Assembly: GCA_965214095.1 (NCBI GenBank)
Contig: OZ243938.1
Location: forward strand, 320,001 to 384,000
DNA from: Candidatus Poribacteria bacterium
Lineage (GTDB): Bacteria > Poribacteria > WGA-4E > WGA-3G
Direction: 5' to 3'
Length of the DNA stretch: 64,000 bases
In this document: positions 4,494 through 8,767 of the stretch, in pieces
Numbering within the stretch: the first letter of the stretch is position 1
How the letters are laid out: every line of letters starts with the position of its first letter
Notes under the pieces: generated by a model
Seen by the model: only the letters and a program-made list of their open reading frames with translations
What the model was told of the DNA's origin: nothing
The model's database searches: none
Program-made: the position numbers and the translations under genes

Positions 4494-5543
4494 TTATTCA
4501 CGCGGCAAAGTAATTGTGTCTGGCACGATAATTTCTCTCTTGATAATTTTTTCTTTTAACGATTCTACCTTCGTTATAATTTCTTCTGAGAGTAGTGGCA
4601 TGTTGTGTTCATCAACTGCATAATAGACACCACCGTCTTCTAATCCAAAGTAACGCACTCCCGCCATGAAATTTCCATCAATGGTCTCTTGTATGATACG
4701 TTGAACAGATACAGGGATTTCTTTTGCCATACTCGTCAAAACAAGTCCAGGGGCAAGGTCGTTCCCGTTGGAATCCACCCAAATAATAAAGTTCTGTGTT
4801 TCTTGTGCTGCTTCAAGGACTCCCTGTCCTGAACCACCCGCTGCAGTGTATATGACATCAACACCACTTGCATATTGTGCTAATGCGATCTCTTTCGCTT
4901 TCTCAGGTTGAATGAAACCTGTAGCATCTAAACTGATGTATTCAACAGTAATATCAGCCATTGGATTAATTTCACGAATACCTGCAATATATCCGGCTTC
5001 AAATTCATGGAGTAATGGAACATCAGCACCACCGATATAACCTATTTTTCCAGTTTCTGATTTTAGTGCTGCGATTGCTCCGACAAGGAAGGATCCTTCA
5101 TTTGATTTATAGTTTAAAGCAGCTACGTTTGGCATTTCAAGTACGACATCAAAGATAGCAAATTTCACATCTGGAAAATCTGGAGCAACAAGTCTGAGAA
5201 TATCTCCCATTTGATAACCCGCTGTTATTACAAGATCAGAGTTTTGGGCGGCTTCTCTCATCAACATCTCAGTTGCGTCAGGATCGTTTTCATTTCCGTT
5301 CAATTCTGTTAGCATTATCCCAAGTTCAGTGACAGCAGTTCTTACACCGATATGAAAACCATCACAGTAAGCAGCAGATCCAACGCAGTCATTGGGATAA
5401 ATCATCGTTACTTTTAACGGTGTTGAATCCAACATACTTGCATCATCGGTGTCAACCACTTTCTCAACATATTCACATCCGAATACGACTACAGACATTA
5501 ATACTATAATCATTGGTAAACAAGCATTCTTGATATATTTCAT
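4494..5543 (-). CDS. BMP family ABC transporter substrate-binding lipoprotein
   Basis: EGSFLVGAIAA, KIGYIGG and GVDVIYTAAGGSGQG motifs; lipobox VFGC; probable start MKYIK. Confidence 0.88.
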   Translation of the reverse strand: MKYIKNACLPMIIVLMSVVVFGCEYVEKVVDTDDASMLDSTPLKVTMIYPNDCVGSAAYCDGFHIGVRTAVTELGIMLTELNGNENDPDATEMLMREAAQNSDLVITAGYQMGDILRLVAPDFPDVKFAIFDVVLEMPNVAALNYKSNEGSFLVGAIAALKSETGKIGYIGGADVPLLHEFEAGYIAGIREINPMADITVEYISLDATGFIQPEKAKEIALAQYASGVDVIYTAAGGSGQGVLEAAQETQNFIIWVDSNGNDLAPGLVLTSMAKEIPVSVQRIIQETIDGNFMAGVRYFGLEDGGVYYAVDEHNMPLLSEEIITKVESLKEKIIKREIIVPDTITLPRE

Positions 5544-5611
5544 AGGTGCTCCAAATCTGTTGGGTGACTGATTAATCCTGAGACTGCAACAATGTGTTTG
5601 GGATGATTCAT
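5540..5611 (-). pseudogene. possible 23-aa remnant of a NUDIX-hydrolase-like gene
   Basis: Strong GGAGG RBS, then MNHPKHIVAVSGLISHPTDLEHL*; PKHIVAV resembles MutT/NUDIX N-termini; stop overlaps the BMP ATG. Confidence 0.35.
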
Positions 5612-5622
5612 ACAATCCTCCC

Positions 5623-5904
5623 TCACTTATTACTAAAATGACATCGCAAACGGTACCATCTTAGCTGCCAAATCAATTTACTTAACTTAATACGGTGCAT
5701 GCTTAGTTGCTTCCCATTCATTTCAAGTACTGGAATTAGCAGTTTATATTTAGAAAACAGTCCAAGATTCTTCGTAATGTCAATTTCCTCAACAGCAATA
5801 AACGGTAATTTCGCTTGGACGTTCTTCAATATTAATTTTGCCTCATCGCAAAGCGGACAATCCGACTTCGTATAGAATTTAAGTTGAAGCGGCGTGTTCT
5901 TCAT
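5623..5904 (-). CDS. glutaredoxin-like protein (DUF836 type)
   Basis: FYTKSDCPLCDEA CxxC motif and IPVL cis-Pro; start MKNTP abuts the IS left end. Confidence 0.85.
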   Translation of the reverse strand: MKNTPLQLKFYTKSDCPLCDEAKLILKNVQAKLPFIAVEEIDITKNLGLFSKYKLLIPVLEMNGKQLSMHRIKLSKLIWQLRWYRLRCHFSNK

Positions 5905-5968
5905 CAACGTTTCGGGCAGGAAACCCAATCCTTTAGGTTTCGGAGGAATGCCCGCTCCTGTCCTTTTC

Positions 5969-5997
5969 TTGACAACTCATGTCAGATCTGTTATACT
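5969..5997 (+). promoter_or_regulatory. sigma70 promoter of tnpB with an overlapping palindrome
   Basis: TTGACA-N17-TATACT with extended -10 TG; TGACA-N5-TGTCA palindrome over the -35 box. Confidence 0.75.
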
Positions 5998-6000
5998 ATT

Positions 6001-6084
6001 CTCAGCATTGTTGGTAGAGAATACTACCCTCTCCGCTTGGAGAGGTCTCTACCATGCCAGTAGTATTGGTAAATAATGCTGGAG
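6001..6084 (+). ncRNA. putative structured (pseudoknotted) 5' leader RNA of tnpB
   Basis: Four complementary stems of 7-10 bp, one crossing; begins at the predicted TSS. Confidence 0.55.
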
Positions 6085-6091
6085 AAAAACA

Positions 6092-7213
6092 ATGCGAACC
6101 TATAAATACAAGATACGCAACCATTCTAAGAACAAACGCTTGGGCAACCTGTTTGATGATCTTGCTGATGTGCACAATCACTTTCTGCGTTTAGAAATGC
6201 GTTATTATCGCAGAAACGGTAAATATGCTGGTAGATATAGGCTGCAACCGCATCTTACGAAGTTGCTCAAGACAACCAAGAAACATTGGGCTTGGATACC
6301 GCGTGACACTTTGGATGCAGCGATTATTCGCATAGATGCTGCATATCAACGTTTCTTTGCTGGTCAAGGCGGACTTCCTAAATTCAAACGTAAACATCGT
6401 TATCGTTCTGCGAAGTTCCAAACAGGCTATAAACTTGAAAATGGACGGGTGCTTATCTCTTTCAAGTCGTGGAATGTCTCCACACAATCTCTGAAATTCA
6501 ATCGTCGCTGGTTTTCTTTTCATCAGCACCGAGACTGGCACGGCACTGTCCGCTATGTTCAAATACTCCGTGATAGTGCCGGTGAATACTGGCTTTACAT
6601 TGTCACCGATGATACTTCTACCGAACCTATGCGACAAACAGGTGAGAGCGTAGGTATAGACTTCGGATTGAAAACATTTTTGACTTTGAGCAACGGTGAA
6701 AAGATACAAGCACCAGAATTCTTGAAACAATCCTTGAAACATCTTCGCAAACTGAATAAAGCTGTGAGTTGTAAAGTCAAAGGGTCTAACAATTGGTGTC
6801 GCGCTATTAGAGAACTCGCCCGGCATCATATCAAGATAGCAAACCAACGGCTTGACTGGCAATGGAAACTTGCTACAGACTTGTGCAGAAGGTTTGATAC
6901 GATTGCTGCTGAAACGTTGAACCTTGACGGTATGAAGCGATTGTGGGGACGTAAAGTCTCCGATCTCGGATTTTACCAGTTTATTCAATTGTTGGCATTC
7001 AAATGTTTCAAACATGATAAACAGTTTCTGCAAATCGGACAATGGACACCTACAACAAAACCTTGTAGCAACTGCGGAGATAAAAACAATAATCTTTCTC
7101 TCAATGATAGGCAGTGGACATGTTCACAATGTAATTCAGAACATGATAGAGATATAAACGCTGCTATCAACATATTACGGGCTGCTTATGATCCCGTTGT
7201 GGAGCAGACGTGA
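6092..7213 (+). CDS. tnpB: RNA-guided endonuclease TnpB
   Basis: RuvC motifs GIDFGLK, IAAETLN and DRDINAAINI; CxxC...CxxC zinc finger. Confidence 0.93.
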   Translation: MRTYKYKIRNHSKNKRLGNLFDDLADVHNHFLRLEMRYYRRNGKYAGRYRLQPHLTKLLKTTKKHWAWIPRDTLDAAIIRIDAAYQRFFAGQGGLPKFKRKHRYRSAKFQTGYKLENGRVLISFKSWNVSTQSLKFNRRWFSFHQHRDWHGTVRYVQILRDSAGEYWLYIVTDDTSTEPMRQTGESVGIDFGLKTFLTLSNGEKIQAPEFLKQSLKHLRKLNKAVSCKVKGSNNWCRAIRELARHHIKIANQRLDWQWKLATDLCRRFDTIAAETLNLDGMKRLWGRKVSDLGFYQFIQLLAFKCFKHDKQFLQIGQWTPTTKPCSNCGDKNNNLSLNDRQWTCSQCNSEHDRDINAAINILRAAYDPVVEQT

Positions 7214-7306
7214 GACGGGTGTTCTCTTTGGAGAACAACGCTAACTGCTACGAAGCACAAGCTCAATCCTTTAGGTTTGGGTGCTATGACATTGAAAATG
7301 TACTTC
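7140..7306 (+). ncRNA. predicted TnpB omega/reRNA (scaffold plus flanking guide)
   Basis: Hairpins after the tnpB stop (GTTCTC-TTTG-GAGAAC and the right-end hairpin); standard reRNA position; 5' boundary approximate. Confidence 0.5.
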
Positions 7307-7327
7307 TTACATAAGTGCCAACAACTC

Positions 7328-8767
7328 TTATGCTAAAATGTCTTTGACGACATGTCCATGAACATCTGTCAGTCGGAAGTCTCTACCTTGGAACCGATAA
7401 GTCAGTTTTTCATGGTCTATACCTAATAGATGAAGCATTGTTGCGTGGAAGTCGTGAACATGTACGATATTTTCAACAGCATTGTAACCAAGTTCGTCAG
7501 TATTACCGTAGCTAATTCCACCTTGAACACCACCGCCAGCCATCCACATGGAGAAGCCTTTAATGTGGTGGTCACGACCACTTCCTTGTGCCATCGGAGT
7601 CCTTCCAAACTCTCCACCCCATATAACCAAGGTTTCGTCTAACATTCCTCGTTGTTTCAGGTCATTGACGAGAGCTGCAGTTGCTTTATCTACATACCCA
7701 GCAGTTGTTTTTATTGCGTTTTGAATTCCACCGTGATGATCCCATCCTCTATGATAAAGTTGAATAAAACGAACTCCCCGTTCAGCTAATCTTCGTGCAA
7801 GTAAACAGTTGGATGCGTATGAACCATCTCCGGGTTTTGCTCCATACATATCAAGGATTTCCTGTGGCTCTTTAGATATATCGGTTAATTCAGGAACACT
7901 TGTTTGCATACGGAACGCCATCTCATATTGATTGATACGCGTTGCAATCGTTGGGTCGTCAACTGTTTCATTGAGTATACTGTTCAAACTTTGAACTGCA
8001 CCTACCACATCTTCCTGCTGGTCTTTACTTACGCCATCAGGATTTGAGACATAGTGAACTGGATCACCTTTTGAATTGAACTGAACACCTTGGAATTGTC
8101 CGGGTAGAAATCCGCTGTGCCACTGGCGCGTTGCAATCGGTTGGTCTTGTCCACCACCAGAGGAGATAAGAACAACAAAACCGGGAAGGTTTTCATTCTC
8201 GCTACCGAGACCATATAACAACCATGACCCCATACTCGGTCTTCCTGAAATTGCGGTTCCTGTGTTCATGAAGGTGTGTGCAGGGTCATGATTTATCTGT
8301 TCGGTGCGTAAAGAACGCACAATGCAGATATCATCTGCAAGGCTGCCAATGTGAGGAAATGCTGAACTCATCACCTGTCCAGAATCACCAAAATTCTGAA
8401 ATTCATGTGTTGGTCCTAAACACTTAAGTGCATTTGCCTGACCTTGTAGCTGTGCAATCGGTTGTCCTTTTGTGTAGGATCGCGGCATCGGTTTACCATG
8501 CATTTCTGCAAGTTTCGGTTTATAGTCTAATGTCTCTAAATGTGAAGGTCCTCCAGCCATGCAAAGATGTATCACACATTTTGCTTTTGGTTGCACATGA
8601 GGTTCGGTTATGATTCCTTGCCATCGCTCAATCTTTGGGGCTGCATCAACCAACGACGGTGTGAGTAGAGAAGCAAGTGCAACTGACCCGACACCACGGA
8701 CTGTTTTGCCTAAAAATGTGCGTCTTGTGAGACGTAGTTTGGTTTCTTCATTTATACCGTTTGACAT
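7328..8767 (-). CDS. DUF1501 domain protein (Tat-exported, sulfatase-like fold)
   Basis: TRRTFLG Tat motif; GGPSHLET, RPSMGSW, WDHH, GEFGRTP and GRDH motifs. Confidence 0.92.
   Translation of the reverse strand: MSNGINEETKLRLTRRTFLGKTVRGVGSVALASLLTPSLVDAAPKIERWQGIITEPHVQPKAKCVIHLCMAGGPSHLETLDYKPKLAEMHGKPMPRSYTKGQPIAQLQGQANALKCLGPTHEFQNFGDSGQVMSSAFPHIGSLADDICIVRSLRTEQINHDPAHTFMNTGTAISGRPSMGSWLLYGLGSENENLPGFVVLISSGGGQDQPIATRQWHSGFLPGQFQGVQFNSKGDPVHYVSNPDGVSKDQQEDVVGAVQSLNSILNETVDDPTIATRINQYEMAFRMQTSVPELTDISKEPQEILDMYGAKPGDGSYASNCLLARRLAERGVRFIQLYHRGWDHHGGIQNAIKTTAGYVDKATAALVNDLKQRGMLDETLVIWGGEFGRTPMAQGSGRDHHIKGFSMWMAGGGVQGGISYGNTDELGYNAVENIVHVHDFHATMLHLLGIDHEKLTYRFQGRDFRLTDVHGHVVKDILA

Follow-up and report, generated by a model that had tools for sequence, protein, structure and literature searches.

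A small structured RNA at the 5′ end of a transposon-borne tnpB transcript in Candidatus Poribacteria probably acts as a bistable, cis-acting translational gate for TnpB; judged from sequence comparison and predicted folding, this reading has a probability of about 60%. The 5′-terminal strand of the leader has two conserved partners, which exclude each other. The first closes a compact pseudoknotted junction, and the second covers the tnpB start codon. The original prediction had placed a pseudoknotted leader at the tnpB transcription start and had proposed for it a cis-regulatory, catalytic or TnpB-binding role. A conserved sense-strand RNA structure starting at this point was borne out by the fold, by covariation among homologues and by the promoter spacing. 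Among the proposed roles, cis-regulation of the nuclease gives the best reading, as one of two exclusive conserved helices covers the start codon; catalytic, TnpB-binding and DNA-level roles found no support. The leader would also be expected to limit TnpB expression, as had been proposed.

The analyzed window is a 64-kb stretch (G000:C1:320001-384000) of a 5.2-Mb genome. The 373-aa product of its tnpB gene matched the Pfam families OrfB_IS605 (1.9e-23) and Cas12f1-like TNB (9e-19), as well as PDB chains 8bf8, 8exa and 8h1j (“RNA-guided DNA endonuclease TnpB”; E = 3.7e-38). Its stretches GIDFG, AETLN and HDRDINAA presumably occupy the positions of the RuvC motifs. Inspection of the ORFs around the locus revealed no tnpA gene adjoining tnpB (6092–7213). 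According to the ORF list and Pfam, the neighbors of tnpB are a glutaredoxin-like gene upstream and a DUF1501 gene downstream, both on the minus strand. The limits of the element, determined by BLAST against its own genome and by alignment of its copies, define the following features:

5901–5904, plus strand: TCAT flank directly 5′ of the element (TCAY in the aligned copies)
5905–5968, plus strand: left end of the IS200/IS605 type, an imperfect subterminal palindrome with outer stem 5913–5918/5949–5954
6092–7213, plus strand: tnpB, encoding 373 aa with RuvC-like motifs
7180–7290, plus strand: right end and omega-RNA-like 3′ scaffold, ending in ...CTATGAC at 7290

The left end recurs about 14 times in the same genome. 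In an alignment of 14 such left ends, 13 of which align across the hairpin, the sequences 5′ of TCAY are unrelated, and TCAT 5901–5904 is likely to be a target or TAM-like site. The inner stem of the left-end palindrome covaries among the copies (CCCAA/TTGGG, CCCAC/GTGGG, CCCCG/CGGGG), and the hairpin core is present again at the right end. Homology between the right ends of 18 elements ceases after the conserved ...CTATGAC, with a terminal hairpin that covaries, and own-genome matches stop at 7290/7291. Judged by this anatomy, the element is a tnpB-only (IS1341-like) member of the IS200/IS605 family. The same genome yielded five matches to Y1 transposases (TnpA) and 22 to the TnpB zinc-finger domain.

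The element is inserted directly upstream of the glutaredoxin-like gene, and TCAT 5901–5904 is the reverse complement of the ATG of that minus-strand gene (MKNTP...); read from its listed TTG start (5928), the gene would extend into the left end. Since the element abuts this ATG, the native upstream region of the gene has been replaced by the left end of the transposon.

Immediately behind the left end lies the promoter from which the leader would be transcribed:

5969–5997, plus strand: sigma-70-type promoter, TTGACA (5969–5974), 17-nt spacer, TATACT (5992–5997), 11/12 match to consensus

The near-consensus hexamers and the extended −10 (TG at 5989–5990) agree with the original prediction. 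This is the sole plus-strand site found in 5600–7600, and the promoter scan detected no promoter-like site on the minus strand opposite the leader. A promoter match of at least 9/12 precedes 65 of the 72 distinct homologous leaders, its −10 hexamer ending 6–7 nt before the first paired G (exactly 7 nt in 54 of the 65). This fixed distance implies that the RNA starts with the first paired strand or one base before it. The start, earlier placed at about 6003, is close to that position and, from the promoter spacing, is more probably 6004/6005. Metatranscriptome contigs from four sets comprised only fragments, mostly of relatives, with none over 6003–6053; one exact 194-nt contig covers 6150–6343 (depth 2.4), although contigs cannot show RNA ends.

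Folding of 6003–6095 gave −40.2 kcal/mol, compared with −19.4±3.0 kcal/mol for shuffled sequences (z −6.96; 0 of 200 as good), and 6004–6081 alone gave −36.1 kcal/mol (z −6.61). The approximately 75 nt from the RNA start form a three-way junction of helices P1 to P4 with a 7-bp pseudoknot, followed by the initiation region:

6005–6012, plus strand: strand a (GCATTGTT), 5′-terminal strand of the RNA, common to P1 and the start-codon helix
6005–6012/6072–6079, plus strand: P1, 8 conserved bp
6013–6020/6046–6053, plus strand: P2, within 6013–6053, enclosing a 7-nt bulge (6021–6027) and P3
6028–6034/6039–6045, plus strand: P3 hairpin with loop GCTT
6057–6059/6067–6069, plus strand: P4 hairpin, 3 bp, with a 7-nt loop (6060–6066) forming the pseudoknot 3′ strand
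6021–6027/6060–6066, plus strand: pseudoknot, 7 bp, P2/P3 bulge with P4 loop
6072–6079, plus strand: strand a′1 (AATAATGC), 3′ P1 strand, nearly a copy of the start-codon region
6081–6084, plus strand: Shine-Dalgarno-like GGAG, between a′1 and a′2
6088–6095, plus strand: strand a′2 (AACAATGC), comprising ATG 6092–6094, the four bases before it and the next C; alternative partner of strand a

Most of the helices proposed earlier were recovered, some of them trimmed. P2 (as 6013–6020/6046–6053) and P3 (CCTCTCC-GCTT-GGAGAGG) stood as described, and both covary in the homologues. P1 had been drawn with 10 bp, of which the inner 8 bp are conserved; the outer pairs 6003–6081 and 6004–6080 are unpaired in 11 and 19 of 38 leaders, respectively, and probably lie at or before the first base of the RNA. 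The crossing helix, described as 8 bp, is real and covarying over 7 bp, but its eighth pair (6020–6067) collides with P2 and P4. GGAG 6081–6084 is present directly 3′ of P1, which had been said to abut it, and a purine-rich GGAG, GAGG or AAGG was seen by eye at the same place in most aligned subfamily-1 leaders. P4 and the second pairing of strand a are additions to the earlier list of helices. The strands joining the helices are short (0–4 nt) and variable, and their unpaired positions are rarely conserved.

Two further candidates were rejected: the extended P4 hairpin of the minimum-free-energy fold, which is not kept in the homologues, and a conserved uORF starting at the ATG within a′1 (6075), whose frame and length vary and which is replaced by ATA in one lineage. 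The P2 3′ octamer TCTCTACC occurs again outside the element, at 7378–7385 within the DUF1501 gene, 88 nt past the right end, probably by coincidence.

A TnpB protein search of species-representative genomes identified 79 loci (41–94% aa identity), all from Candidatus or uncultured Poribacteria. In the regions upstream of these tnpB genes the fold is kept, while the sequence differs widely in P3, in the pseudoknot and in that half of strand a which varies. Forty-one leaders were aligned with MAFFT (A1; 38 distinct), some rows being misaligned in P4 and P2. In this alignment 94.0% of helix cells were paired, compared with 79.8% after shuffling of columns (a value reached by none of 500 shuffles) and 34–48% with slid partners; the homologues are related copies, so that shuffle controls overstate independence. 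In A1, the pseudoknot was 95.1% paired, with both sides changed in 6/7 pairs; P3 was 97.6% paired (6/7 changed on both sides) and P2 97.3% (4/8).

A covariance model (R1) built from the nested helices only, with the pseudoknot left out, guided a second alignment of 87 hits (A2; 72 distinct). In A2, 94.6% of cells were paired (71.3% when shuffled) and 32/35 pairs had changed on both sides, counts which for the nested helices lean towards the model structure: P2 was 98.1% paired (5/8 pairs changed on both sides) and P3 99.4% (7/7). The pseudoknot, though absent from the model, was 90.7% paired, and all 7 of its pairs had changes on both sides. The architecture is the same, with a′1 and a′2 in tandem, in a second subfamily distinguished by sequence (P2 GGCAGACA/TGTCTGCC); aligned alone (A3; 16 of 27 sequences), this subfamily was 94.5% paired overall, 95.5% in the pseudoknot and 100% in P3. 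Across A1, A2 and A3 the pseudoknot was therefore 90.7–95.5% paired, with 5–7 of 7 pairs changed on both sides. All helices thus covary in 72 distinct leaders, as the original prediction would require. There are also exceptions to compensation: the closest relative (L021) carries an uncompensated change in strand a, and an abundant lineage (L023 and its copies) a C.A mismatch in a′1.

In the helices, G.U-type cells outnumber A.C cells (135 versus 40), an excess which assigns the structure to the sense strand. The P2 sequence (GGTAGAGA/TCTCTACC) is kept even where the TnpBs are only about 50% identical, while P3 varies freely.

Strand a (6005–6012) is also perfectly complementary to 6088–6095, the AUG included. 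This second helix, a:a′2, was paired at 99.1%/88.9% in A1 and 90.7%/86.0% in A2, and the alignment scored equally well when P1 was swapped for it. The four non-coding bases before the AUG covary with strand a; the pair 4 nt upstream of the AUG, for example, is UA in 23 cases, AU in 19, CG in 11 and GC in 5. In 58 rows there were 38 distinct (a, a′1, a′2) triplets with 15 distinct a strands (e.g. TTGT/ACAA/ACAA, TAGT/ACTA/ACTA, TTAC/GTAA/GTAA and TCGT/ACGA/GCGA), and 56 of the 58 rows retain at least 7/8 pairs in both helices. The two 3′ copies of subfamily 2 adjoin each other in tandem; the second lies 6–7 nt before the ATG, and its 5-bp core covaries. Such three-way covariation indicates two functional and mutually exclusive pairings. 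A conspicuous triple change (ACGT) in locus L129 was set aside as evidence, this locus being a truncated remnant without tnpB.

The mean difference in folding energy between the two states (ddG, B−A) was −0.3±2.7 kcal/mol over 38 leaders. The states may therefore be nearly iso-energetic, but only roughly so, since the nearest-neighbor model ignores the pseudoknot and some A1 rows are misaligned in P4 and P2. The comparison of homologues demonstrates the fold, its covariation, both helices, their fixed position relative to promoter and start codon, and the association with tnpB. The leader thus combines a conserved helix over the AUG with a conserved competing helix, as expected of a cis-acting translational leader with alternative pairing, in the manner of IS200 or hok.

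A positive role of the 5′ end was also considered, in which the structure serves as a standby platform for the ribosome (S1/30S), as a cap-like stabilizer, or as both, for an mRNA with a sequestered start codon. The helix begins at the first or second transcribed base, so that the 5′ end is paired, the pseudoknot lies near this end and the start codon can be sequestered. In addition, the abstract of a study of tisB reports that standby translation requires a 5′ pseudoknot (PMC7708055), but tisB also needs a single-stranded standby region. Such a role would leave unexplained the presence of a′1, a near-copy of the start region that covaries with strand a, and we regard it as quite unlikely.

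The distribution of the leader was examined with R1. In its own genome the model gave 6 hits, all upstream of tnpB genes, and it recognized 26 of 38 loci left out of A1 (E≤1). Of 151 genomes sampled from the phylum, 98 contained matches, about 490 in all; positive genomes were concentrated in families f1 (83/99) and f3 (14/26), with 0/25 in the other seven families, and matches occurred in 4 of 22 genera. A scan with an exact P2 pattern, which covers one P2 variant and for which roughly 2–3 chance hits were estimated, found 49 loci: 44 labeled Poribacteria and 3 in unlabeled MAGs with the true motif. The remaining two (Omnitrophota and Calothrix) fall inside ORFs and either fail the model or barely reach it, in line with the chance estimate.

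The closest own-genome paralog, L002 (C1:1996175–1997447), retains the leader (78 bits), while its tnpB has lost about 75 nt early and its frame is broken. Four loci have a promoter and leader with no tnpB ORF behind them: L129 (the truncated remnant mentioned above), L139, and L181 and L182, found in MAGs labeled “uncultured bacterium”, where the leader is followed by ORFs of 4 and 20 codons; these remnants speak against the gate reading.

Other copies in the genome share the left end and promoter. Four non-coding mini-elements of about 410 bp, L009/L012 (C1:781024–781434), L008/L011, L007 and L010/L013, have the same left end and promoter; about 220 nt of different sequence separate these from a right end that is homologous to 7180–7290. 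They are presumably guide-RNA-only derivatives. Neither alignment nor R1 detected the leader in these own-genome mini-elements. It was also absent from a tnpB gene that abuts tnpA (one of four such loci read). These absences link the leader to independent translation of tnpB and not to mobility or to the guide RNA. In a third group of five copies (L018 at C1:2163210, and C1:915856, 2068378, 3328837 and 5063026), the left end and promoter are followed by unrelated sequence; the one copy inspected, L018, contained no convincing ORF after the promoter.

Leaders of other types follow a TTGAC-type promoter at L003/L004/L005 (382-aa tnpB), at C1:481750 and 1018921 (358-aa), and at L073. In every one of these types, the loop of a hairpin can be matched by eye to a complementary stretch further downstream, as in an H-type pseudoknot. 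A 5′ strand that can pair with two downstream copies is present at L073 and in the 382-aa group; the second copy covers an SD-like AGAAGG or just precedes the ATG. For L003, the minimum-free-energy fold has the SD paired (z −2.67). These observations suggest that the design is general in elements of this kind.

The same comparisons bear on the possibility that the structure operates as single-stranded DNA, as a signal for TnpA or the replication fork during transposition, and not as RNA. Elements of the IS200/IS605 family move as single-stranded DNA, whose top-strand hairpins are read by TnpA, and the structure does lie on this strand. A hairpin of the TnpA type is, however, found elsewhere (5913–5954), with a twin at the right end, and the mini-elements, present in multiple copies, have retained left end and promoter yet carry no leader, which therefore does not qualify as the left-end TnpA-binding hairpin. 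Given also that G.U-type pairs are common, that the fold sets in precisely at the predicted start of the RNA and that one helix covers the start codon, a DNA-level function is highly improbable.

A second TnpB-binding RNA, as had been suggested, was likewise not favored: by eye, the leader is unlike the 3′ omega-RNA region of the element (18 aligned elements), and the mini-elements share the left end and promoter yet lack the leader. An omega RNA would lie at the 3′ end, overlap the end of tnpB and be followed by the guide, whereas the leader lies at 6005–6095. The Rfam library that was searched includes the IS605-orfB-I family (RF03065), which gave no match to the leader at E≤10. Indeed, at E≤10 Rfam 15 returned four chance-level hits in 5500–7800, of which only RT-17 overlapped the leader (17.7 bits against a gathering threshold of 40.4), six diverse homologous loci gave no hits at E≤1, and the whole 64-kb window contained no family at gathering threshold. 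The earlier statement that this is no known riboswitch or ribozyme agrees with these searches.

Another proposal is that the 5′ end of the transcript yields a stand-alone or processed trans-acting small RNA, or is a self-cleaving ribozyme. The 5′ UTR of IS200 tnpA is reported, in the abstracts of PMC5435999 and PMC12594629, to be processed into a structured regulatory sRNA; solo leaders without tnpB occur, and the compact fold has the size of a small ribozyme. Against a small RNA, no terminator-like site is listed after P1 (6000–6100), and the solo copy inspected (L129) is an element remnant. Against a ribozyme, there is no match to an Rfam ribozyme family (such as hammerhead, twister, pistol or hatchet) and no conserved junction core. 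The motif is also bound to the ORF by its covariation with the start-codon region, and either form of this proposal is very unlikely.

A sharper version of the gate reading is a ligand- or protein-sensing switch. The pseudoknotted junction would bind either a small molecule, as an aptamer, or, in autoregulation, TnpB or its RNP; binding would lock P1 and free the AUG, or the reverse. The layout matches the aptamer-plus-expression-platform arrangement of translational riboswitches, with a′1 and a′2 competing for strand a, and there are two balanced states, of which only the P1 state has the compact junction. The retention of P2 at about 50% TnpB identity while P3 varies is also consistent with a sensing function. 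However, few unpaired nucleotides are conserved, unlike in most ligand pockets, no likeness to the omega-RNA region suggests mimicry, no Rfam riboswitch matches and nothing points to a ligand. A sensing junction is therefore unlikely.

In the preferred reading of the leader as a translational gate, the left-end promoter would fire and the transcript would begin at about 6004/6005 with the 5′ leader of the tnpB mRNA. Strand a would close the three-way junction, the P2–P3 arm and P4 being locked by the 7-bp bulge-loop pseudoknot. With a:a′1 formed, P1 and the compact junction would leave the SD (6081–6084) and the AUG single-stranded, permitting translation; with a:a′2 formed, the AUG would be buried in an 8-bp helix, with a′1 and the SD looped out, and translation would be off. 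In bacteria, a start codon held in a stable helix prevents 30S accommodation, and from this we infer that translation is on in one state and off in the other, the compact junction favoring the on state. The gate would set the share of transcripts that make TnpB.

With a ddG near 0, the bare equilibrium would shift translation only about two-fold, so that a real switch would need an effector or a kinetic effect. We favor the view that transcripts are partitioned by default, perhaps with a bias from some factor stabilizing the compact junction. As a guess, the balance might be tipped by folding kinetics, by a protein (TnpB or ribosomal protein S1) or by a small ligand.

TnpB is reported to make its guide RNA from its own mRNA (PMC10278001). 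With the guide derived from this mRNA and a sole plus-strand promoter-like site in the element, ribosomes translating the last part of the ORF would get in the way of scaffold folding. Untranslated transcripts might, at a guess, serve as precursors of the omega guide RNA, the scaffold of which overlaps the 3′ end of the ORF, and a leader that keeps some transcripts silent would resolve the conflict between mRNA and guide. It is conceivable, though rather doubtful, that the leader is a sensor which chooses for each transcript between TnpB translation and omega-scaffold folding or processing, set by TnpB, its RNP or a cellular signal. In that case it would be the first riboregulator found in nature for an RNA-guided nuclease, and the competing demands of mRNA and guide on a single RNA would be reconciled.

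Cas12 descends from TnpB nucleases, which now serve in genome editing, and to our knowledge little is known about how the elements control them. The natural RNA module described here, about 90 nt long and strongly supported, appears to gate TnpB translation, and it offers a testable model of one transcript as both mRNA and guide precursor as well as a small pseudoknotted switch scaffold for engineering. It also represents a well-populated RNA family missing from Rfam (about 490 hits, in sponge-metagenome Poribacteria according to record labels). A motif named “Poribacteria-1” is reportedly among the candidate RNAs of the 2017 survey by Weinberg and colleagues, and the leader may be identical to an uncatalogued survey motif of this kind. 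Literature searches found no paper for “Poribacteria-1”, none combining Poribacteria and TnpB and, in titles and the opening parts of abstracts, no description of a tnpB 5′ leader; “IS605-orfB” was found only in the Rfam 15 paper. The TnpB study PMC10278001 used artificial 5′ UTRs.

Several known systems share parts of this architecture. The omega RNA (IS605-orfB-I, RF03065) is a structured RNA that elements of this kind encode and that shares its promoter with the leader, but it lies at the 3′ end and abuts the guide (scaffold at about 7180–7290 here), whereas the leader is at the 5′ end and has no guide.

Translational riboswitches of the THF-I type contain a three-way junction with a loop-bulge pseudoknot. 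As in the leader, P1 closes the pseudoknot-tied junction and its 3′ strand competes with the initiation region; the leader differs in having no conserved pocket nucleotides, no Rfam match and no indicated ligand. In hok mRNAs, alternative pairings of the 5′ end are said to have been demonstrated by “coupled covariations” (Gerdes laboratory). There too, a 5′-terminal strand with alternative covarying partners reportedly decides translatability, but the competing partner is said to lie at the far 3′ end, and switching to involve 3′ processing and an antisense RNA. In the leader, both partners are located within 25 nt, next to the start codon.

According to the abstract of Romilly et al. (2020, PMC7708055), the pseudoknot of the tisB +42 mRNA, which serves standby translation, favors the binding of S1/30S at a distance of about 100 nt upstream. 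Like the leader, it combines a pseudoknot near the mRNA 5′ end with a sequestered initiation region, and its protein is potentially harmful; the fold of the leader differs in directly bordering the Shine-Dalgarno sequence and in including a decoy of the start region. The 5′ UTR of IS200 tnpA, as summarized in the abstract of Ellis et al. (2015, PMC4513863), combines an RBS-sequestering structure with the art200 antisense RNA and Hfq. By analogy, both are mRNA leader structures of IS200/IS605-family elements that would repress translation initiation of a transposon gene, tnpA in IS200 and tnpB here. The IS200 abstract mentions no pseudoknot or decoy start site, both of which are present in the leader, and IS200 has art200, whereas no promoter-like site was found on the minus strand opposite the leader. 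The tnpB leader is accordingly a structured transposon mRNA leader, a known kind of regulatory RNA, and is new as a variant of it.
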